Source: an uncultured Planctomycetota bacterium (GTDB taxonomy: Bacteria; Planctomycetota; Planctomycetia; Isosphaerales; Isosphaeraceae). From it: a stretch of 64,000 nucleotides of DNA. Shown here piece by piece: positions 40,729-64,000 of the stretch. Position numbers and translations under genes: made by a program. The notes under the pieces were generated by a model that ran no database searches, was not told where the DNA came from, and was given only the letters and a program-made list of their open reading frames with translations. The DNA is taken from the NCBI GenBank assembly GCA_963845755.1, contig CAWJTV010000040.1, positions 1 through 64,000 of the forward strand, read 5' to 3'. Every line of letters starts with the position of its first letter. Position 1 is the first letter of the stretch.

Positions 40729-41184
40729 ATCCCTCCGCCATCGAGTCCCTTCGAGATCTCCGACAGGAGTCTACCACACGAATTGGGTGGCATCCCGGAC
40801 GATACCGATTTCGGCTGGACCGGCGACCGGCCCGGGATTATCGTCCATGCCCATGACGGGATTTCTGCTTACAACGAATCGAGGCAACAGGATTTGAACC
40901 CCGCGTGGCCCTCTACCTGCTGCCCTATCCCGCTTCGGTCGGATCGACCGAAGTCATTCTCCCCGATTGACCCAGGTCTCTTTCAAGCGCCATTTTGCTC
41001 TGGCAACGCCTTATGCCCATGTGCCCGTACGTTATTCTGGACCGAGCAATTTCAAGAGCCATGTTTCGCACGGGACATCGGCTCATCCACCAGCGCGGCC
41101 CAGACCTCGTTCGATGCCAATCCACGAGCGGGAACTCGAAGACGACGAGGAAAACCCAGGCTGAACCATACCGGAAACCCACCC

Positions 41185-42055: not shown

Positions 42056-42129
42056 GGGCGCATAGCTCAGGTGGCTAGAGCGCACCCCTGATAAGGGTGA
42101 GGTCCGAGGTTCGAATCCTCGTGCGCCCA
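42056..42129 (+). tRNA. tRNA-Ile(GAT), CCA not encoded
   Basis: Full cloverleaf: GGGCGCA/TGCGCCC acceptor stem, CACCC-CTGATAA-GGGTG anticodon arm, GGTTCGAATCC T arm. Confidence 0.97.
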
Positions 42130-45544: not shown

Positions 45545-46940
45545 ATGAGCGTGGCCTCCCCATCGAAAGACAGACTTGTCCGACTTTCGCTCGACGCGAT
45601 CAAACCCGCTCCCGAAAACGAGCTGGTCTACCGGCCTGTGCGTACGGACGATCCCGAGATCAGAAACCTGGCGATCAGCATCCGGGATCACGGGCTCCAG
45701 GAGCCCATCGTCATCTCGCAGGACCACTTCATCCTGAGCGGACACCGGAGGCATGCCGCATGCCGCCTCGCGGGCCTGACCGAGATCCCGTGTCGCGTAG
45801 CGGAGATCAGCCGCTACGACCCCGAGTTCGAGACGATGCTGGTCGAGTTCAATCGTCAGCGCGTCAAGGACTTCGCCGAGATCGTGCGAGAGAAGGTTGT
45901 CACGCACAATCCTGACGATGCTTACCGGGCACTCAAGGCGCACCGAGAGGAGATGTCTGCCGTTAGTGGCGATTGCCTCAAGATCGATGGGACGAAGGAA
46001 CGCAAGCGGATCAGCAGCGCAAAAACGGCCCATGCTGGACGCCGCGATCAAGGTCATCGGCGCCCAGCAAAAATACTGGCCGCTCTCGGATCGGTCGATC
46101 CATTACAACCTGCTGAACTCTCCGCCGCTACGCCATGCCGGCAAGGCTGATTCCCACTATCGGAACAATATCGATTGTTACAAGGACCTGTGTGACCTGT
46201 TGACAAGGGCTCGACTTACGGGAGAGATCCCGTTCGCGGCCATCGCGGACCCAACGCGCCCCGTCGTGATATGGGATGTGTTTGCCGAGGTCGGCGGTTT
46301 CATCCACCGTGATTTGCAGCGTTTCCTCGGCGGATACCACCGGAATCTGCAACAGAGCCAGCCTGTACATATCGAAATCGTGGGCGAGAAGAACACGATC
46401 GCGGGCTCCATCAAGGGTATAGCGGCAGAGTATTGCATCCCCTACACGCTGGGACGTGGATACTCATCATTGGACCCACGGCACCGCCTCTACCAGCGAT
46501 TCAAGAAGAGCGGGAAGCATAAGCTGGTCCTCTTGATCCTGTCCGACTTCGATCCGGAGGGGGAGGATATTGCCCATTCGTTCGCGCGATCGATGCGGGA
46601 TGATTTCGGGGTGCAGAGCGTCCACGCCAAGAAGGTCTGCCTGACCCACGAGCAGGTCTTGGAGCGAAACATCCCCAAGACCTTCGACATCAAGAAGAGC
46701 ACCTCTCGTTATCGCAAGTTCGCGGCGAGGTATGGGGACCGCGCCCACGAGTTGGAGGCACTGTCGCCTCAAGAGAGGGCGCGTCTGCTGGAGGAGGCGA
46801 TCCTCGAGGTGATGGACGTTGAGGCATCCAACGCCGAGGTTGACGCCGAGGCGGAAGACGCGGCGAAGCTCCAGGGACTTCGGGAGGCAGTCGGTCCGCT
46901 CCTGATGAGTGTCCTCTCCGGCGAGGGAGGTCTCCGGTGA
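45545..46940 (+). CDS. ParB/Srx N-terminal domain joined to a Topo VI-A/Spo11-like Toprim domain, frameshifted
   Basis: SIRDHGLQEPIV...LSGHRR; IHY, RARL, VGEK, GRGYSS, SDFDPEG. Confidence 0.75.
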
Positions 46941-49587
46941 GCACCACCCAAACCGGACCAGACGGCATCCTCAAGGGACCTGGCCCCGCCCTGCGACGCA
47001 CGGTCGAGGCGCAAGCGAGAGAGGCCACACCCGGGCAGGCTCTCTCCAGATTGAAGTCGGCGACCTAGTCACCTGGACCGACCTCGACGGACGCGAGTGG
47101 CCTCCGAGGCGTGTTCGGGAAATCTACCCAGATCAGGGCTATTGCGTGATCGAAGGCTCCGATACGGGGTTGCCGATCGAGCAATGCGTGCTCGACATCC
47201 ACCTGGCGACCGCACTCAAGGCGCTTGCCGTAGAGCTCTCCCCGGCGCTGCCTACCGAAGATGGGCTCAAGAAGCCGGATGGACCCTGGAAGCGCTACCA
47301 GACCACTCCGGCGACCGAGGCCGAGGTCAGGAGTTGGTATCGATCCCGCCGAACCGGCAACGGGCTCGTCACGGGATATGGCAACCTGGAGTGCCTGGAG
47401 TTCGACGACCACCTAATCTATGAGCGATTCCGGGAGGCCGCGAACAAACTTGGCTTCGGTGACTTGATCACCCGGATCGAGACCGGATATTCCGAGGCGA
47501 CCCCGGGCGGCGGGATTCACTGGCTATATCGATGCGAGACGCTGGACGGCAACACCAAGTTGGCAGAGCGTCCGAACCCGACCGAGAAGGATCCGGACGG
47601 ACGCAAGCCCCTGATCGAGACACGCGGTATCGGCGGGTTCGTCGTGACGGCGCCGAGCAACGGCAAGGTGCACCCCAGCGGCGGGGCCTACAAGTTTCTC
47701 TCAGGCGGACTCGACTCCATCGCCACGATCTCGTCGGAGGAACGAGAGGCTCTCTTCCTGCTAGCCAGGACGTTTGACGAGATTCCGGATCCGGTGGAGG
47801 CGGAGCCGTCGCCGTGGGCGATGCAGGTCCCGCACAGCCATCCCACCCAGGGCGTTTCTCCGCTCGACGACTTCAAGGCTCGCGCGAGGCTGGCGGACAT
47901 TATCGAGCCGTTCGGGTGGCAGAAGGTCTTCACGAGTGGCGGGGTCGAATACTGCGCAGGCCCGACAAGGATCGAGGGTGGAGCGCCGACGTGGGGCAAA
48001 ACCAAGGGTTTTCGCGTCTTCACGTCATCGACGCCCCTCGAGGCCAAGAGCCTGTCGCTGCCGTATGTGTACTGCAAACTGAAGCACAACGGCGATTGGA
48101 AGGCATGCGTCAAGGACCTAGCACAACAGGGTTTCGGGACGTGGATCGACGATCAGGGCGAAGAAAAGCAGAATCCCGCCCCCTCGAGCTCGAGACGCAA
48201 CGGTCAGCATCAAGCCGGCAGCAAGGCGCAGGCGACGCCAGGCTCTAACCCGAAGCCGAGTCCCAACGGGACCGGACAAACGCTTGTCGTTTTGACAGAA
48301 CCCGACATCGAGGACGTCGAGATACTCGATCACTGGCCGCGGATCGACCCGAAAGCCTTCCATGGATTCGCGGGTGAGCTGGTCGCGATGGTCGAGCCGC
48401 ATACCGAGGCGGACCCGGTCGCGATCCTGATGCAATTCCTCGTGGGGTTCGGCAATGCGATCGGGCGGGAAGCTCACTTTTCTGTCGGGGCGACCCGCCA
48501 CTACCTCAATCTGTTCATCGCTTTGATCGGGGCAACGGCAGTCGGACGCAAGGGAACCTCGTGGGACATCATCTCGTGGTTCCTAGCCCTGGCGGATCTC
48601 GTCTGGGCGGCAGACAGGATTCAGGGCGGACTCGTGAGCGGCGAAGGGCTCATCTACCATGTCCGCGATGCCGTTTGGGAAGAACGAGAGACCAAGGACA
48701 AGAAAACCGGGACCACGACCAAGGATTTGGTATGCACGGACGCAGGGGTGGCGGACAAGCGGCTCCTCGTGGTCGAGACGGAAATGGGCCGAATGTTGAA
48801 AGCGATGAACCGCGAAACCAATACCCTCAGCGACGTCATCCGACAAGCATGGGATACTGGTCAGCTTCGGACTCTCGGTAAGCATGCCCCGGCAAAGGCG
48901 ACCAACGCCCATGTCTCCCTGGTCTGCCATGCGACCCAAGCTGACATCCGAAAGCACCTGACCGAGACGGATTCCGCCAACGGCTTCGCGAATCGTTTCT
49001 GGTGGATAAGCTCGCGCCGCTCCAAGGTCCTACCAGACGGCGGGGATCTGGGGGCGATCGAGTGGACGCCCATGCAAGAACGACTGATTCGAATAGTCGA
49101 GTTCGCCAGAGAGCCGAAGCGGCGGATGACCCGCGACACCAGGGCGTCCAAAGCCTGGCACGCGATCTACGAGGAATTGTCGTCTGGACGACCCGGGTTG
49201 GTCGGCAAGATCCTCAGCCGGGCCGAGGCGCAGGTCATGCGGGCGGCGTGCCTCTATGCACTGCTCGACATGGCCGATCAGGTCAGGATTCTCCATCTCG
49301 AGGCCGCGGTTGCGGCGTGGGAATTCAACGAAGCATCGACCCGATTGATCTTCGGAGAAGGAATGGGCGATCCCGACGCCGAGAAGCTCTTGAAGGGGCT
49401 GAAGGAGAATCCCCAGGGGCTAACCCGATCCCAGATCAACGCCGACATTTTTAAGCGTAACAAGAAGGCGAGCGAACTCGGGGCGCTCTTGTCTGACATG
49501 CTCACCCAAGGTCTCATCCATCGAAAAACCGACCAGAGCACAGGGGGTCGAGCGGCGGAGCGGTGGTACTTCGGGAGGGGCGTGTGA
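46909..49587 (+). CDS. Bifunctional primase-polymerase + DUF3987/helicase-like replication protein; start uncertain
   Basis: WKRYQ, LECLEFD, TPGGGIHW, ETRGIGGFVVTAPS; GRKGTSW, SGEGL, NGFANRF. Confidence 0.85.
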   Translation: MSSPAREVSGEHHPNRTRRHPQGTWPRPATHGRGASERGHTRAGSLQIEVGDLVTWTDLDGREWPPRRVREIYPDQGYCVIEGSDTGLPIEQCVLDIHLATALKALAVELSPALPTEDGLKKPDGPWKRYQTTPATEAEVRSWYRSRRTGNGLVTGYGNLECLEFDDHLIYERFREAANKLGFGDLITRIETGYSEATPGGGIHWLYRCETLDGNTKLAERPNPTEKDPDGRKPLIETRGIGGFVVTAPSNGKVHPSGGAYKFLSGGLDSIATISSEEREALFLLARTFDEIPDPVEAEPSPWAMQVPHSHPTQGVSPLDDFKARARLADIIEPFGWQKVFTSGGVEYCAGPTRIEGGAPTWGKTKGFRVFTSSTPLEAKSLSLPYVYCKLKHNGDWKACVKDLAQQGFGTWIDDQGEEKQNPAPSSSRRNGQHQAGSKAQATPGSNPKPSPNGTGQTLVVLTEPDIEDVEILDHWPRIDPKAFHGFAGELVAMVEPHTEADPVAILMQFLVGFGNAIGREAHFSVGATRHYLNLFIALIGATAVGRKGTSWDIISWFLALADLVWAADRIQGGLVSGEGLIYHVRDAVWEERETKDKKTGTTTKDLVCTDAGVADKRLLVVETEMGRMLKAMNRETNTLSDVIRQAWDTGQLRTLGKHAPAKATNAHVSLVCHATQADIRKHLTETDSANGFANRFWWISSRRSKVLPDGGDLGAIEWTPMQERLIRIVEFAREPKRRMTRDTRASKAWHAIYEELSSGRPGLVGKILSRAEAQVMRAACLYALLDMADQVRILHLEAAVAAWEFNEASTRLIFGEGMGDPDAEKLLKGLKENPQGLTRSQINADIFKRNKKASELGALLSDMLTQGLIHRKTDQSTGGRAAERWYFGRGV

Positions 49588-50164
49588 TGGGTTACGAAAG
49601 AAGTCTTCATCGTACGAAAAAAGTCCCCTCAGGCATGGTGTCTGCCCAGACTTCTTTCGTACGCCACGAAGTAAGTGGGACCGATCATCGAGATGGCGTC
49701 GTTTTCGATCACCAGGACGGCAGCGCGCTGCGGGTTGCGGAGGGTGTGGCGCGATGGGCGCGTACACCAGCACCACTCGGCACGTTGCGAAAAGCGCGGA
49801 GTCCATTCGAACCTGGAGTTGAGCGTGGCAAAGCCCGGAACGGACGAGCCGGCCAGGCGTTCGCGCTTGTTGAGTCCGGCGTGGTGGCCGGGGCCACCGC
49901 CAATTCCTCGCTGCGAACCGTCACGGGCCGCAAACAGGATGACCAGGCCGCCGAGACGAAGCCCCCCGCAGGAAGCTGCTCGCGGATTCTGGATCAGAGC
50001 CTGGAGCCAACGCGAGCCCGCCCTTCAAGGAACCGGCCGCTCGAGTGACCCAGCACGGTGGCTGGGTTGGCTCAAGGGTGGGCTGGACGATCCCCACCAC
50101 TCACGCCGAAACCACTCTCATCGCGTCGAACACCCGATCCGGACGTTGGCGTACCGCGATTTGG

Positions 50165-50935
50165 TCACTCGTCGGTCGAATCGGGATCTTTGTCTTTCAT
50201 GCGATAACTGTCTCCTTGAATCACGATCCCCTCCCCGTGATGCATCAGCCGGTCGATCAAGGCCGTGGCCAGGGTGTTGTCCACATCGAAGAGTTTGCCC
50301 CATTCCCGGAACGGTCGATTCGTGGTGATCACGATCGATCCCACTTCATAACGGGCGGCGACAACCTGGAACAACAAATCGGCCCCACGCTTGTCGATGG
50401 GCAGATAGCCCAGCTCATCAAGGAGGAGAAGACTGGGACGGACATAACTTCGGAGCGTTTTGCCCAGCGACCCATTGAGCTGGGCCGCGGTCAGATGATT
50501 GATCATGTCCACCACACGCGTATGGCGAACCGAATGGCCACGCTCAACGGCTGTGTAACCCAGTGCCGTGAGAAGATGGGACTTGCCCGTTCCGGTCGGC
50601 CCAATCAGAACGGCACAGCCGTGCTGCTCGATGAAGTCGCAGTCGAACAAGCGCACGATCGCGGCCTTGGGGATTCGCTTGGGGAACCTGAAGTCGTATT
50701 CAGCCAGGGTCTTTGGCTTGGGAAGCCGCGCCTCACGCAGCCGACGCTCCAGAGCTCGTTGCTCACGGGCGGCCTGTTCAGCCCCGATCAGGATCGCCAG
50801 AACTTCCAAGAAGGAGCTCCCTTTGCGAGCGGCTTCGTCGAGGACGTCGCGGTAGCTCTTGGCGATCTCTCACAGCTTCAATTCGGCCAGGTCGCGGTCG
50901 AGCCGTGCCTGGAGATTATCCTCACGCCGTGCCAT
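50165..50935 (-). CDS. istB: IS21 AAA+ helper ATPase, frameshifted near the 5' end
   Basis: GPTGTGKSHL, LLLLDELGY, ITTN, ALIDRLMHH, GDSYR. Confidence 0.93.
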
Positions 50936-52432
50936 CAGAGTCCTCGTCGCTGGTGTTACAGAAGCGGTCGTAAATGCCGGGATCCGTCGGTTCCAAATCG
51001 ATCTCGTCAATCAATTCGCGCCGTTTGGGAGTCGGCAGTGTGGGTGTGGGAAGCTGCCGGCGCCGCCGCTCCGCCAGGAGAAGGTTCTCGACGTAGGCCG
51101 CGTCATAGGCCGCCAGCTCCAGGGCCCGGGCGATGGCCGAGACCACCTCGGCCGTGCCGTAGACGCGCGCCAGACCCAGCAAGCGTCGCAGATGGACCCC
51201 CGTCTGCACCGGCTGGCGGTTCAGGCCGAGGTGGAACTGCCGAGCCTCGGGGCCGAGGGCATCAAAGGCCTGTTCCAGCGCCGAGCTCGGCGACCGCCGG
51301 CCCATACTCAGTGCCGCGGTGCGGTGCTCGGGCAGCACGATCAGTTGCCGGCGCCCGTAGCAGCGGGAATGCCGGGCCACGACTTGGCCCTGGTGCACGA
51401 TGCCGACTTCCTGACCGTCGGCGCGAATCGTGACCGTCTGCCGCGCCAGGTGCGGCGGCACCGAGTAACGGTTCGCATCGAACTTGACCCGCGCATGGGG
51501 ACTGGCAACCGCCAGCACGATCTCGGCGGTGTCAAACGGGATCGTGGGAAGTGCGCGGAGCCGCGATCGCTCGTGATGAAACCGGTCTACCGGGCGTTCT
51601 CGAGTCGTCTCATGAATCCGGACGTTGGCAATCTCGTCGCGCCACCGGGGTGCCAGCGCGAGGTAGTCCTCGAAGCGGACGAGCTCGTCGCTGCGACCGG
51701 CCAGGGCGTTTCGTTTCACGTAGCGCACGCCCCCTTCGACAATCCCCTGGGATTCCGGATCGCGCCGTTGGCAGGCGATCGGCTGCAAGTAGTAGTGGCC
51801 GCAGAGCGCCAGGAACTCGGGATGGAAGCAGGCCGCGCGGCCGGAGCCATTGATCACGGCCGCTTTCAAGTTGTCGAAGATGATGGCACGGGGACTGCCA
51901 CCAAAGAACTCCAGGGCGTGCACCAGGCCGCGATAGAATTCCGCCTTGCGCTGCGAGAGGGTGAATTCGATGTAGGTCATCCGGCTGTAGCAGAGGACGG
52001 CCACCAAGACCGAGACCTTGCGGGTCGTGGTCCCGAGTTGGACGTGGCCGCATTCGCCCCAGTCGACCTGCATGGCCTGAGCCGGTTCGTAGTGGACTTC
52101 TTGATAGACGCGACCGCGCGGGGCGAAGGGACCGCACGTAGCGGCGGACGGTAATCACGCTGCCGGTGTAGCCATTGGGACCGCGAGCGATCTCCTCGTG
52201 GACGCGCACCGCCGACAGCTCGGGATACTGGGCCAGCAGGGCGTCGATCTTGGACTTGTAGGGGTCCAAGGAACTGACACGGCAGGGGTCGCGGTGAGTG
52301 GGAGGCTGCTGCAACTGGAGGCGCTCGAGCGACCGTGCGGCAGGAACAGTGAAGTCGCCCGGCGATGGCCCGAGCGGAGAGGTTCTCGATCTCGGCCAGG
52401 CGACGAATCTCGGCCCACAAGGCCACCTTCAT
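50922..52432 (-). CDS. istA: IS21 DDE transposase, frameshifted
   Basis: N-terminal HTH, LDPYK, QVDWG, FDNLK, GIVEGGV, RIHETT, NRYSVP. Confidence 0.92.
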
Positions 52433-52842
52433 GGCTGACTCCTTTCCTTGTCAAGAGGTGTCGACGCGATAGCCTGGCGCAGGATATCGCCCAGTTGCAT
52501 CAGCCCGCCGCCGGGCTCGGATCTGCGGCGTTGACAGCGCGGAGGCAAGGAAAGGACCTGGGTTAACGGCGGTTCGTAGGCGATCAGGTCGTAGGCCAAA
52601 AGCTCGTCACGGGCCTGGAGCAAGCTGGGCAGGGGGATGCGCAACCGAGCGGCCAGGGTGCCATCGCTGTAGAAGGACAGGCCGTTGACATCGGCCACGG
52701 CTGACAGAAAGAAGTACAACAGCACGGCCTCGCGTGAGAGCTGGTCCATGTGCTCGCGCACGAAGCGACCGTCGAGCCAGGACCAACCGGTTGCGGGAGG
52801 CCGCCGCAGTCGGTGGGGAACCAGAATGCGCTTGGGTATCAT
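52429..52842 (-). CDS. IS-borne wHTH-like accessory protein, translationally coupled to istA
   Basis: WSWLD, LLYFFL.AVAD..GLSFY, ARDEL...DLIA, QVLSL; homolog at 60906-61315. Confidence 0.75.
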   Translation of the reverse strand: MIPKRILVPHRLRRPPATGWSWLDGRFVREHMDQLSREAVLLYFFLSAVADVNGLSFYSDGTLAARLRIPLPSLLQARDELLAYDLIAYEPPLTQVLSLPPRCQRRRSEPGGGLMQLGDILRQAIASTPLDKERSQP

Positions 52843-52939
52843 GCTGGGGCTCCTGGGGGTGAACAACAGGATGCCCAGGCTAAAGCAGTCTGCCGGTACC
52901 ACGCGATAATTGACGACCGGCGCCTTGGGGGAAGGGTCG

Positions 52940-53517
52940 TCATAGCGGCGGTGACCGGGGTGGCCGATCGGTGGTGTCTTGCTGACACCGGGATCGATTG
53001 CGGTGTGCGGCCTGGTATTCGATGGCGCGCTTGTTCCGGCCATCCAAGGTGCCGCGAGCGAGCCACTTACGTTCGCGGTCCCGGACGTTGCGAACGGCCT
53101 GACGGCAGGCGGTGCCGCAGTAGCGAGCCGGGTTGCGCGATGAGTTCACCGGGGGTTGGTAGCAGCCAGGCCGATCGCAGAAGGGGTGGGGGAAAAATTT
53201 TCTGCTGCGTGACCACGCGCAGGCGCAACGTCCGGGTTCTCAATAGCTTTGGGCGTGGCTTTGGCTTGCTGGCGGCGCTGTTTCTCGGCCTGGGCATGCT
53301 GGGCTTTGGCGCGGGCGTCTTGGCGGCGTTTTGCCTGGCGGCGAGCCGCTTGCCAACGGCGGACTTCCCGCAGGCATTCCGGGTCCTGGCAGTAGCGCTG
53401 GTTCCAGCATCGCGGCTGGTACTTGCGTCGGCAACCTTTGCGCAGGCAGATCCGTGGGCGCGGTCGGCGGCCTCTGGGCAGACGGCGGTATCGTTTCGTA
53501 ACGTGAGGAGTGCCCAC
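52940..53517 (-). CDS. IS-borne basic protein with two Cys4 Zn modules joined by a -1 frameshift
   Basis: CLRKGC...YCQDPEC, then CDRPGC...YCGTAC; homolog at 60231-60810. Confidence 0.7.
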
Positions 53518-53622
53518 GGGAGCGGCTACTCTCGAGGGAAAAGCTCGGGGAGAATGTTGATCGCGTTCTCCTCGAGCGCTATTCCAACGCAGACCCGACG
53601 CTGACATGCCAGTATATCGTCT

Positions 53623-53777
53623 TCTCGAGAACAAGGACGGCAAGACAAACGGTCAGAAGTGCCGCGCTGGGAACCAGACGAAGGCGCTGCCGTTGAAGCG
53701 ATCGCCCTCTCGAGAACGAGAACGGAGAGACAAACGGTCAGAAGTGCCGCGCTGGGAACCAGACGAAGGCGCTGCCG
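53623..53777. repeat. 85-bp-period direct repeat inside the IS21 copy A end
   Basis: tctcgagaac...agacaaacggtcagaagtgccgcgctgggaaccagacgaaggcgctgccg occurs twice (53623, 53708). Confidence 0.85.
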
Positions 53778-53819
53778 GTCCAATGATCGAAAGCGCTGCC
53801 GAATCAAAGATCGGTCCCA

Positions 53820-59461: not shown

Positions 59462-60001
59462 ATGCACCCCCGCCGCGCCTTCCGTGCCCTTCTGATGCTG
59501 ACCCTCGTCTCTCTGATGACCGCCGCGGCCGCCTCCCCGGCATGGGCCTGGGGGAGGTTGGGTCATCGCGTGATTGCCAGGCTGGCCGAACATCACCTGA
59601 CCGATCGGGCGAAGCAAGAGATCAAGGCCCTGCTGGAGCCGGGAGAGTTGCTGGCCGACTGCTCGACGTGGGCCGACGAGGTCCGGGGGAGGATGAGGAA
59701 GTCTGCCCCTTGGCACTACATCGACATCCCTTTAGATGAGCTTAAGTACGATGACAAGTGGGCCGCGGACGACTCCCGCCATGGTTCCATTGTCCCGAAG
59801 ATCCGGGAGTTCCTGAACGTCCTTGGGAACCCGGACGCCCCGGTCGCGGAACGCCGCCCTGCGCTCCGTTTCGTCGTGCATCTGGTCGAGGACCTCCACC
59901 AGCCTTGCCACGTCGGGGACAACCACGACCGCGGCGGGAACGATACCCAAGTCCGTTGGTTCTCCCGCGGGTCCAACATGCACCGGGTGTGGGACACCTG
60001 A
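59462..60001 (+). pseudogene. S1/P1 nuclease truncated by IS21 copy B
   Basis: AWGRLGH, WHY, HLVEDLHQPCH, MHRVWDT, then the IS end supplies TGA. Confidence 0.88.
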
Positions 60002-60230
60002 TACCGATCGGGAAATCAGAGCCATCTTCGATCGTCTGGAGGGAGCCACCCGAGCTGTCGTCGATCCTGGCCTCTCCTTCTGAAGCGCATGTCTCAGACC
60101 GTTTCATCTTTTGTCTTGTTCTCAACAAGGCGATAGACTCACAAATCAGCGTCTCCTTCGCCTTTTGATCACGCTCGAGGAGGATGGTAGGGCATCCTCC
60201 TCGAGCTTTCCCTTGGGAGCAGTACCTCCC

Positions 60231-60810
60231 GTGGGCGCCGGTCAGGGTACGCCAAAGCACGGCACTTCGGCCAGAGGGCGCCGACTGCGCCCGCGGATTT
60301 GTTTCCGCAAGGGGTGTGGACGCAAGTATCAGCCCCGCCGCTGGAACCAGCGCCACTGCCAGGACCCGCAATGTCAGCGGGAGGTCCACCGCTGGCAGGC
60401 AGTGCGCCGGCAAGCCCGACATCGCCAGCACGCCCAGGCCAGAGCCCAGCATGCCCAGGCGGAAAAAGTGCGCCGTCAGCGAGCGAAGTCTGCGTCCCAG
60501 ACCATTGAGAGCTCAGAAGTTACGCCGGCGCGTGGTCACGCAGCAGAAGATTTTTTTCTCCGCCGTTATGCGATCGGCCGGGCTGCCATGAGCACCCCGT
60601 GAGCTCGCCCCGCAACCCCGCCCGCTACTGCGGCCCTGCCTGCCGGCAGGCCGTTCGCAATGTCCAGGACCGGGAACGCAAGTGGCTTTCCCGCGGCACC
60701 TCGGATGGGCGGAAGAAGCGCGCGATCGAGTACCAGGCCGCACGAAGCGCCGCATCGTTCGATCAGGCCATCTCACCAACTCGGCACCATCGCGACCACC
60801 TCCCCAATGA
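60231..60810 (+). CDS. IS-borne double Zn-module protein (-1 frameshift)
   Basis: CFRKGC...HCQDPQC; CDRPGC...YCGPAC; conserved GTG start with GGGAG upstream. Confidence 0.7.
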
Positions 60811-60905: not shown

Positions 60906-61315
60906 ATGCCTGCGACACCCATCCTCGTCCCCGCGACTGCGGCGTCCCCCCCAGACCGGTTGGTCCTGGGTTGACCGTCGCTTCGTGCGCGAGCACGCCT
61001 GCGCACCTCTCCCGCGACGCCGTGCTGCTGTACTTCACCCTCTGTGCCGTGGCCGACAAGCACGGGTTGTCGTTCTATGGCGACGCCACCATGGCCGCCA
61101 TGGTGCGGATGAACTTGCCGGCCCTGATGGCCGCCCGTGAGGAATTGCTCGCCCGCGATCTCATCGCCCATGAGACGCGTTTCACTCAGGTGCTCTCCCT
61201 GCCGCCAGCCGGCCAACGCCGCGGTGAGTCCGGCGGAGGACTGATGTCTCTGGGCGAGATCTTGCGCCAGGCCGCCGCACTCCCTCAGCTCGACGACGAA
61301 AGGAGCCTGCCATGA
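60906..61315 (+). CDS. IS-borne wHTH-like accessory protein, frameshifted
   Basis: LLYFTLCAVADKHGLSFY...AREELLARDLIA...QVLSL. Confidence 0.72.
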
Positions 61316-62821
61316 ACGTCGGTTTGTGGGCGGAGATCCGCCGCCTGGCCGAGATCGACAAGCTCTCCACCCGGGCCATTGCGCGACGACTCCACTGCGC
61401 CCGGCGGACCGTGACCGCGGCCCTCCAGCGGGATCATCCCTCGGCGCCCCCCCGCGCACGCCGCGCCAGTCTTTTGGACCCGTACAAGGCCAAGATCAAC
61501 GCCTTGGTGGAAAAGTGTCCCGAACTCTCGGCGGTGCGAATCCGCGAGGAGATCGCCCGCGGGCCCGACGGTTATACCGGCAGTACGATCCTCGTGCGTC
61601 GCTATCTCCGGACCATCCGCCCGGCTCGCGGACGGATCTACCAGGAGGTCCATTACGAGCCGGCCCAGGCCATGCAGGTGGACTGGGGCGAGTGCGGTCA
61701 CGTCCAACTCGGGACCACGACCCGCAAGGTCTCGGTCTTCGTGGCCGTGCTCTGCTACAGCCGCCTGATGTTCATCGAGTTCACGCTGTCGCATGCAAGG
61801 CCGAGTTCTATCGCGGCGTGGTGCACGCCCTGGAGTTCTTCGGCGGCAGTCCCCGCGCCCTGATCGTCGACAACTTGAAAGCCGCCGTCCTCAACGGCTC
61901 GGGCCGCACCGCCTGTTTCCATCCCGAGTTCCTGGCGCTGTGCGGTCACTTCTGCCTGCAGCCGATCGCTTGCGAACGACGCGACCCGGAATCCAAAGGG
62001 ATCGTCGAGGGGGCCGTGCGCTACGTCAAGCACAACGCCTTGGCCGGCCGTGGGGCGGAGCTGACGGGCTTCGAGGACTACCTGGCTCTGGCACCACTGT
62101 GGCGTGACCAGGTGGCCAACGTGCGGCTCCATGAGACGACCAAAGAGCGGCCGGTCGATCGCTTCCTGCGTGAGCGCCCGCGGCTGCGCCCGTTGCCGGC
62201 GATCCCGTTGGACACCGACGAGGTCGTGGCCGCGGTCGTCAGTCCCCATGCGCGGGTCGAGTTCGACGGCAACCGCTATTCGACACCGCCGAAGTTCGCT
62301 CGCCGGGCGGTCACGATCCGCGCCGACCGCGACGCGGTCCGCGTCCTCCACGAGGGTCAGGTGCTGACCCAGCATGTCCGTTGCTACCAGCGGGGACAGT
62401 TGATGGTCCGGCCGGACCATCGCACTGCCCGCTGGCCCTGGGCCGTCGGGCTCGGAGCACCGCGCTGGAACAGACGTTTGACGCGTTGGGGCCCGAGGCA
62501 CGCCAGTTCCACCTCGGCCTGCGGCGTCAGCCGATCAAGACCGGCGTTCACCTGCGTCGCTTACTCGGCCTGGCCCAACTCTACGGGGCCACCGAACTGC
62601 TCTCAGCCATCGCGGAGGCCCTGGAACTGGCGATCTACGATGCTGCGGCGGTCGAGAACCTCCTGTTGGCCCAACGGCGACGGCGGCAACTCCCGACCCC
62701 CACGTTGCCCACGCCCCGGCGGCGCGAATTGATCGATGAGATCGAACTGGAACCGGCCGATCCCAGCTTCTACGATCGCTTCTGCACTCACACCGCGGAG
62801 GACGCTCATGGCACGACGTGA
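61312..62821 (+). CDS. istA: IS21 DDE transposase, frameshifted
   Basis: QVDWG, DNLK, KGIVE, RLHETT, NRYS. Confidence 0.92.
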
Positions 62822-63577
62822 GGACAATCTCCAGACCCGATTGGACCGCGATCTGGCCGAATTGAAGTTGCCCGAGATCGCCAAAGCCTACCGCGAAGTG
62901 CTGGATGACGCCGGCGCAAGGGGAGCTCGATGCTGGAAGTCCTGGCGACTCTGATCGGCCTGGAGCAAGCCGCCCGTCAGCAACGCGCCCTCCAGCGGCG
63001 GCTGTGCGAGGCCCGGCTGCCCAAGTTGAAAACCCTGGCCGAATATGATTTCACCTTTCCCAAGCGGATTCCCAAGGCAACGATCCTGCGGTTGTTCGAC
63101 TGCGACTTCATCCCCCGCCATGGCTTCGCCGTGCTGATCGGCCCGACCGGAACCGGAAAGTCGCATCTCCTCACGGCGTTGGGTTACACGGCGGCCGAGC
63201 GCGGCTACTCGGTCCGCCATACACGGGTCGTGGACATGATCAATCATCTCACCACGGCCCAGATCAACGGTCTGCTGGGCAAGGTGCTGAAGACCTACGT
63301 CCGTCCCAGTCTGCTCCTGCTCGATGAGCTGGGCTATCTGCCCATCGACAAGCGCGGGGCCGATCTGTTGTTCCAGGTGGTCGCGGCCCGTTATGAATCC
63401 GGATCGATCGTCCTATCGACGAATCGACCCTTCCGGGAATGGGGCGCCCTGTTCGACGTGGACAACACCCTGGCCACGGCCTTGATCGACCGGCTGATGC
63501 ATCACGGGGAGGCACTGGTGATTCAAGGAGATAGCTATCGGATGAGAGACAAAGATTCTGATTCGACCAGCGCGTGA
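62808..63577 (+). CDS. istB: IS21 helper ATPase, frameshifted near the 5' end
   Basis: GPTGTGKSHL, DELGY, DRLMHH, GDSYR. Confidence 0.93.
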
Positions 63578-64000
63578 ATCAGCGCGGCGCGTCCACGTCC
63601 GGAGCGGGTATTCCCCGCGAAGTGAGCATCCTTTGGCGTTAGTGACCGGGATGTCCAGCCCACCCTTGAGCCAGCCCGGCGATCCTGCCGGGCTGTTGGT
63701 TCAAGCGGCCGGTTCCTTGAACAGCGGGCTCGCGTCGGCCCCAGGCCCTGGTCCAGGATCCGCCAGCAGCTCCAAGTAGGGGCTTCGTCTTGGCGACCTG
63801 GTCATCCTGTGGTGGCCCGCGGCGGTCCACGGCGAGTGAATTGGCGGTGGTCCCGTCCCCAACGTCGGACTCACGGAGCAGGAACGCCTGGCCGGTCCGT
63901 CCGCGTCTCGCGACGTCACGACACAGATTGAGACCGACCTCACTCCTCGCATTTGACCGCGTGCCGAGCGGCGTGGCCGCATGCGCCGATCGTCTTGGAC
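63578..64000. ncRNA. Candidate structured RNA downstream of istB (homolog at ~49730-50164)
   Basis: Colinear similarity between the two IS copies with frame-breaking indels and compensatory stem changes. Confidence 0.45.

Follow-up and report, generated by a model that had tools for sequence, protein, structure and literature searches.

Why would an IS21 transposon carry hundreds of conserved bases beyond its last gene? For the model member IS5376, 55-bp ends suffice in vitro according to the consulted sections of PMC10122671, so the ~700 further bases described below need another explanation. The question is raised by two element copies, A and B, in the stretch of DNA analyzed here (the window, 64,000 nucleotides at the start of contig C40 in an assembly of 14.3 Mb and 49 contigs). 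An earlier note on this DNA had pointed out that more than 400 bp after the istB stop align between B (63578-64000) and the reverse strand of A (50164-~49730), and had proposed a structured RNA or single-stranded DNA element. The alignment is as described, with ~80% column identity and indels that break the frame.

Both copies are complete IS21 elements, with a DDE transposase gene (istA) followed by an AAA+ ATPase gene (istB) and TG..CA ends made of two tandem repeats, and with two extra genes, orf1 and orf2, besides istA and istB (Table 1); target duplications of 5-6 bp and little target preference are further likenesses to the IS21 family. Pfam models matched IstA (rve and Mu-transpos_C_2) and IstB (IstB_IS21), with no match in the two upstream genes, and the IstA of a relative (L085) scored 170 bits against NF033546 (cut-off 160). 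The two repeats in the last ~50 bp are offset by 24 bp, as seen in identity covariation at that offset. Target duplications measure 5 bp for B, 6 bp for the twin of B and 5 bp for the twin of A; the window copy of A has none. B is inserted within a gene that, from its motif, is presumably nuclease-like, and empty paralogues of this gene are found elsewhere in the genome. B and its twin differ by eight small indels inside genes, which indicates that the assembly carries indel errors. In copy A, an in-frame TGA is found ~22 codons past the istB start (~50872, minus strand), at a position where B has a sense codon. Copy A adjoins a ParB-like gene, an unassigned gene and a primase-polymerase/DUF3987 gene (45545-49587), a region that is probably an integrated element; a tRNA lies nearby (42056-42129).

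Table 1. Window coordinates of the two IS21 copies, their genes and the predicted RNA domains
Feature	Positions	Strand	Remarks
Decayed 5' fragment of class I unit	41005-41115	+	promoter-like hexamers 41011-16 and 41033-38
Copy A, whole (orf1-orf2-istA-istB-unit)	49676-53819	-	near-identical twin on contig C24
Right terminal repeats of copy A	49676-49730	-	two repeats, 24-bp spacing, end in CA
Structured unit of copy A	49731-50431	-	
Copy B, whole	59999-64069	+	last 69 bp beyond the window; near-identical twin on another contig
Left terminal inverted repeat of B	59999-60055	+	5-bp target duplication directly before
orf1 leader	60173-60233	+	covarying hairpin, then hairpin over ribosome-binding-like site beside GTG start
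orf1, basic protein, two Cys4 finger-plus-helix modules	60231-60800	+	end approximate; T7 run 60551-60557 splits modules
orf2, winged-helix protein	60906-61315	+	no curated family
istA of copy B, DDE transposase	61312-62821	+	frame broken by indels unlike those of twin
istB of copy B, AAA+ helper	62808-63577	+	one indel near 62913, not in twin copy
Structured unit of copy B, predicted RNA	63311-64000	+	continues to ~64014 past window; start fixed by derivatives and silent-site step
Domain I, long imperfect rod over last ~85 istB codons	63311-63530	+	consensus fold; moderate support
Long-range (pseudoknot-type) helix, 5' strand	63328-63334	+	within istB Walker-B codons
Domain II, basal rod, three-way junction and distal rod	63572-63921	+	consensus fold, covariation
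Long-range helix, 3' strand	63653-63659	+	conserved loop 5' of junction
Three-way junction core	63660-63850	+	P1 63660-64/63846-50, P2 hairpin, P3 63708-19/63834-45 (G-U rich), distal rod
P2, hairpin of the earlier note	63665-63705	+	base covaries; top variable in length, 16-49 nt overall
Domain III, bulged hairpin (63943-63968) and small hairpin	63943-63986	+	sequence conserved, almost no covariation

The frame-breaking indels had been offered as an argument that the region is non-coding. Between A and B alone they prove little because of the assembly errors, and the test was therefore redone on 25 relatives of short-read type. There, 415 of 3472 pairwise indels in the post-stop part are multiples of 3, and codon periodicity is absent (0.73/0.77/0.76, as against 0.97/0.93/0.87 in istB). 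Indel lengths and the flat three-base rhythm rule out a conserved protein in the non-coding part, and the check on coding potential that the earlier note had suggested comes out in favor of its proposal. A scan for small open reading frames returned only starts in the istB frame, a 25-codon antisense frame within domain I and a 36-codon frame leaving the end, each present in ~60-70% of 60 rows.

The consensus fold was derived from an alignment of 94 rows (97 before a 95% filter; mean identity 61%), with four rows excluded for insertions or broken frames. Its predicted pairing is well supported in the junction core, where a fold on 69 core rows has 19 pairs, 18 of them with two-sided changes, and moderately supported in the outer rods and domain I; in domain I, class I units (transposase-less copies, see below) have 28 of 50 double-change cells paired. 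The hairpin singled out in the earlier note is real: its two compensatory changes (arms 63674-63693 in B and 50067-50048 in A; two double changes from A-T to G-C) and its conserved basal stem (63665-70/63700-05 in B, 50076-71/50045-40 in A) are as reported and its base covaries, but it is only a variable side arm, P2, of a three-way junction. A long-range pairing of GGCCGGTTC with GAAC..CTGGCC, suggested at the same time, did not hold up; its positions are 53-86% paired with two independent compensations, and it loses to P3 (63708-15 with 63838-45; 80-99% paired, ten compensations). The long-range helix of the consensus, which ties the Walker-B codons of istB to the loop before the junction, is 96% paired in the 94 rows, with 13 of 14 double-change cells paired, four independent events and strands that are mutual best partners. 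Folded as a single sequence, 63578-64000 is unremarkable on the plus strand (z -0.36) and marginal on the minus strand (z -1.99).

A 45-pair version of the structure has 88% of cells paired and two-sided changes at 36 of its pairs; none of 500 shuffles equaled its score and slid controls reached 33-48%, figures that come from the same alignment from which the structure was derived and from shuffle tests that relatedness inflates. In a more independent test across subclades, a fold taken from 40 close elements alone was transferred to a consensus built from 29 mid-clade elements, where 22 of 27 double changes are paired (null mean 11.9, p=6e-5), and a structure taken from 20 class I units had 22 of 31 double changes paired (p=0.001). 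The covariation check in a deep alignment that had been called for gives a split answer: tests at the level of helices and across clades are passed, a test of single pairs against a tree-based null is not. In the latter, a G-test over all column pairs, one pair has E<0.05, which is a terminal direct-repeat pair, and the best helix pairs reached E 0.4-2. A scan for repeated double changes found 27 complementary pairs, compared with 31, 7 and 8 for control mappings. A large share of the covariation represents one deep split between two subclades, and single changes at predicted pairs kept pairing in 9 of 43 cases (close versus mid), which suggests that parts of the rods are shifted in register between clades or misaligned. 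Class I units are ~67-77% identical among themselves and still have 83% of cells paired. This comparative evidence supports a conserved, covarying structured element in the right end of these IS21 transposons, and the element is probably a functional structured RNA.

How far does it extend? The earlier proposal of a structured element stands in the deep alignment, but it underestimated the extent by ~270 nt upstream. The conserved unit is ~700 nt long and runs from the Walker-B codons of istB (~63311) to the 55-bp terminal repeats; the non-coding right end measures ~490 bp, to which ~270 bp of constrained istB are added. At Walker B, identity at fourfold sites rises from 0.52 to 0.80 in 36 close elements, from 0.52 to 0.79 in 19 close elements at 83% or less and from 0.43 to 0.63 in 28 mid elements; in 50 far elements it goes from 0.36 to 0.38 (p=0.18). 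The transposase-less copies, comprising class I, in which the istB segment has diverged and is non-coding, and two class II junction types, start at the Walker-B boundary too; the unit start is common to three or more distinct junction types. Among 72 unit matches with upstream sequence, 49 (full elements included) start within the first 66 model positions and none in positions 67-295, the other 23 being scattered remnants that lack their 5' part, a sign of frequent decay. The boundary anchors two helices, namely the base of domain I, where compensation is seen in class I, and the long-range helix. Copies recombine (L011 is a mosaic), and this could inflate the number of shared boundaries.

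The unit occurs across one IstB clade that spans several phyla. The best 80 IstB relatives in GTDB include named records from Planctomycetota, Acidobacteria, Proteobacteria, Chloroflexi and Verrucomicrobia; 80 further relatives were taken from metagenomes. The profile matches through to the end in 91 of the 108 loci with IstB identity of at least 60% and at least 430 bp downstream (a set that includes duplicate copies and a few truncated-istB derivatives), and the post-stop length is 460-492 bp (5th-95th percentiles). A covariance model of the core matched 28 of 95 further loci and none of 50 far relatives (~50% IstB identity); where the inverted repeat was located, among the matches listed, most right ends of far relatives are ~90-115 bp long and a few 340-420 bp. 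In the order to which this genome belongs, the post-stop region matched 32 of 121 genomes and full-length IstB 12 of 121. This genome itself has eight strong unit copies and one weak copy by the covariance model; a search with the RNA model through 150 further genomes from the phylum, at 15 candidates scored per genome, yielded no copy. The model likewise did not match five divergent loci whose ends are long or partial (L102, L108, L110, L111 and L234), which may hold diverged versions. L110 has a right end of ~440 bp and a different, cysteine-rich orf1, and L108 a right end of ~600 bp; these two, together with L111 and L102, may carry RNAs that are either diverged or separate. No usable relatives came from viral contigs, and none at E<=1e-60 from plasmids.

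Transposase-less copies show what is retained. The class II derivatives L020, L021 and L079 have both ends, exact 5-bp duplications and the whole unit, as do the class I derivatives L251, L259 and L261 (elements of 3.4, 6.7 and 9.4 kb); L252, also class I, keeps the whole unit, with four of five duplication bases. When 20 kb upstream was scanned, a left end was found for 7 of 16 full class I units and none for the other nine; for 11 truncated remnants, no left end found over 20 kb was convincing. Seven class I units whose left end is no more than 5 kb away have no matching duplication, and one of these seven, L051, belongs to the 16 as well. The cargo of the five elements tested lacks istA, istB, orf1 and orf2, and the derivatives mobilize cargo genes for efflux, NTPase, PARP and regulatory proteins. 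Natural minimal derivatives consist of two ends, promoter and unit in ~1.1 kb; as the element has already been trimmed to this form, the requirement for the unit is directly testable. No pair of left and right ends without a unit was found in this genome, but the loci were found by homology to the unit and the lack of unit-less mini-elements is therefore not decisive.

In 20 of 25 class I units, a promoter-like site (-35/16/-10 pattern) is located 30-33 nt upstream of the unit start, with near variants in the remaining five; it points along the sense strand and is distinct from the promoter-like site of the left end. Because the count was made with the pattern, the conservation of the hexamers is partly circular, and a generic promoter scanner made no call at the site in L001. 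The site resembles istB codons 116-124 (window ~63275-63300), where silent-site identity is raised (0.69); as a speculation, the class I promoter may derive from a weak internal istB promoter.

Several derivatives have further peculiarities. At L001:4467-7772 (G000:C4) and at L002 (G000:C3), three genes lie between two units in direct orientation, one of them a full class I unit and the other 5'-truncated; from their motifs we take the genes to encode an ECF-sigma-like, a small membrane and a signal-peptidase-like protein. This 3.6-kb block is present twice at 97%. A short palindromic repeat of REP-type appearance (window 40933-40955; also in L037, L055, L003, L061, L013, L063 and L044) is found repeatedly where units are truncated and ahead of class I promoters. 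At L262:4745-19830, a left end and a class I unit enclose 15 kb of cargo that includes genes with VWA, reverse transcriptase and WGR-PARP domains, and the cargo of L261 is a CHAT-nSTAND1 protein; both cargoes are possibly defence genes.

Of the two extra proteins, Orf1 is a candidate partner of the unit. In the predicted model of Orf1, each Cys4 motif is followed by a long helix; NCBIfam, Atlas and fold searches gave no assignment (generic helices only, best Z 5.1), and the family is broad, with 768 clusters at 50% identity in a representative library. A T7-8 run between the fingers leaves finger 2 out of frame in B, L065, L090, L092 and L093 and in frame in L085, L089 and L091, and is likely a slippage site that yields one- and two-finger products. 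The orf1 leader is conserved in 37 elements, its first hairpin having seven independent compensations over eight pairs. Orf2 is predicted to fold as a small winged helix; HTH_36 is found on 11% of one look-alike cluster, and RepA_N-type initiators are among the weak fold matches (ranks 6, 29 and 50, all E>0.01). Neither protein matches RuvC or another nuclease family, and a predicted Orf2-IstB complex scored 0.02, which speaks neither for nor against it. Two-finger Orf1 and the unit are present together in 56 of 57 loci and both missing in 22 of 82, with three loci having the unit without finger 2 and one the reverse. The association goes back to one event at the level of the clade, however, and does no more than nominate Orf1.

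The best clue to function comes from derivatives that must borrow the four proteins and still keep 700 bases of pairing and the promoter-like site beside the right end. If the RNA were free to diffuse, it could be borrowed just as the transposase is, and the unit should then decay, which argues for a need in cis. The polymer is likely sense-strand RNA, as suggested by G-U pairs and the promoter-like site: G-U exceeds A-C in most helices (0.18 versus 0.02 in P3), although over all 163 pairs the two are nearly tied (7.5 versus 6.5), and mean core z-scores favor the plus strand in close and class I rows, but not in mid rows. One soil RNA run contained 6% of the sampled words; its contigs are mostly <90% alike and cover all 30 bins including the flanks, and are hence uninformative on the unit. 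We propose that the unit would be transcribed on the sense strand into a folded ~700-nt RNA, in full elements as the 3' part of the operon transcript and in cargo derivatives from the separate promoter, and that this RNA would act in cis, probably bound by the two-zinc-finger Orf1, making its own right end usable by IstA/IstB. We hold this reading, in which mobility would require or strongly favor the RNA, to be a serious possibility that stops short of being probable. A search for covariation between the unit and the ends found at most two events.

Other readings place the structure in a different polymer or give it a different task. It might form in single-stranded DNA during transposition, as a single-strand origin or folded end, and both the modest overall strand asymmetry and the retention in cis would suit a DNA site; G-U positions are nevertheless conserved within covarying helices, DNA parameters keep the outer stem and side hairpin of the B core but lose the P3 rod, and the promoter-like site would be left unexplained, making this very improbable. 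That the RNA is a guide or bridge RNA choosing insertion sites, an analogy drawn by the earlier note, is suggested by its position in a long right end like that of IS1111 bridge RNAs (PMC11208160, in the sections consulted) and by its variable loops. The unit turned out to be unrelated to target sites: the longest match of the RNA to its own flank averages 7.55 nt compared with 7.72 nt for other flanks (n=65) and 7.33 compared with 7.63 nt at six verified sites, 4-nt diagonal covariation between RNA and target does not stand out from the null (15 of 100 permutations gave higher values, n=67), and one genome has identical ends at unrelated sites. With no relation to target sites the unit is not a guide, and this reading, to which we give hardly any credence, is largely refuted, although at n=65-67 the test is weak for short guides. 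The unit could also be nothing but an mRNA 3' structure that stabilizes or tunes the orf1-orf2-istA-istB transcript and is carried by derivatives through hitch-hiking and gene conversion, in line with its place in the 3' part of the operon, the mosaic copies and the many decayed remnants. We consider this quite improbable, as class I units have lost the istB frame yet keep the long-range helix and their overall pairing (83% of cells), and their promoter-like site has no gene to serve.

Two readings retain a functional RNA. As a regulator or decoy in trans, it would bind Orf1 (or IstB) and damp transposition or neutralize a harmful accessory protein, with host selection keeping the promoter-bearing derivatives. 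The excess of genomes with unit homology over those with full IstB, the many class I copies that have a promoter-like site and no left end within 20 kb, and an orf1 that appears tightly controlled (leader hairpins, T-run) would all be accommodated; against this, units in unrelated locations are still joined to intact right ends, in several cases with target duplications, and there is no covarying pairing with the orf1 leader (the best candidate has one compensation and is broken by ATG-start elements), and we regard it as unlikely. Alternatively, the RNA could be a cis-acting primer or R-loop that, in the manner of ColE1 RNA II, starts replication at the right end in copy-out, with Orf2 as an initiator-like protein. 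Its size, its retention in cis and its direction toward the end fit such a role, as do the winged helix of Orf2 with RepA_N-type initiators among its weak matches (all E>0.01) and the description of IstB as a DnaC/I paralogue in the consulted part of PMC11208146. Orf2 is, however, found as well in far elements that have right ends of ~100 bp and lack the unit, its fold matches are generic, and no G-rich hybrid-forming tract was identified, so that a primer seems decidedly unlikely. Our preferred reading thus remains an RNA acting in cis on its own right end, and beneath all of them lies the finding that a real, conserved, probably RNA-level structure of ~700 nt marks the four-gene IS21 branch and its cargo derivatives.

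How does this compare with known systems? IS21 is a structural model for AAA+-driven DDE transposases, the type of machinery used by CRISPR-associated transposons, and in the sections consulted, its structural accounts describe two proteins and no RNA of the element (PMC10122671, PMC11208146, PMC12486865). The clade of A and B differs from the family at large in its two extra genes, long non-coding right end and constrained istB. A full-text literature search, whose coverage left aside most subscription journals, ISfinder/TnPedia and supplements, returned no report of an RNA in IS21. Searches against Rfam 15 found only tRNAs in the window, nothing above the gathering thresholds in the unit region (best E 0.3; group I/II introns, HEARO, GOLLD and ROOL included) and, in 15 related loci, one sub-threshold match outside the unit. 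The IS110/IS1111 bridge RNA is structured and lies in a long non-coding end, the right end in IS1111, with a sigma70-type promoter (PMC11208160, consulted in part). The unit likewise occupies a long non-coding end, but its element encodes the DDE/AAA+ pair IstA/IstB and no DEDD recombinase, and it overlaps the last gene and does not covary with target or ends. Bridge RNA is, moreover, several times shorter than the ~700-nt unit. Omega RNA overlaps the last gene of its element. It lies at the right end (PMC9956272, consulted in part). As a DNA extent, the unit similarly runs from within the last gene to the right end; it differs from the TnpB omega/reRNA of IS200/605 and IS607 in having no RuvC or other nuclease, no guide relation and no Rfam match. 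The ColE1 RNA II primer is a folded RNA of several hundred nucleotides that acts in cis beside the site of a DNA transaction, but the unit has no sequence or Rfam similarity to it. OLE, GOLLD and ROOL are large orphan bacterial RNAs of unknown function in the same size class as the unit, which differs in being tied to one transposon clade, in overlapping a coding region and in lacking an Rfam match. A large RNA and two extra proteins in one IS21 branch would add a non-guiding RNA role to a system of two proteins and 55-bp ends. In its fullest form, which is conceivable but doubtful, our proposal is that a DDE/AAA+ lineage depends on a ~700-nt pseudoknotted non-guide RNA, partly inside the ATPase gene, that licenses elements in cis through a zinc-finger adaptor; if true, DNA transposition would here include a ribonucleoprotein step of a kind different from bridge, omega and CRISPR guides, and the licensing RNA would let transposase-less elements carry 3-18 kb of cargo.
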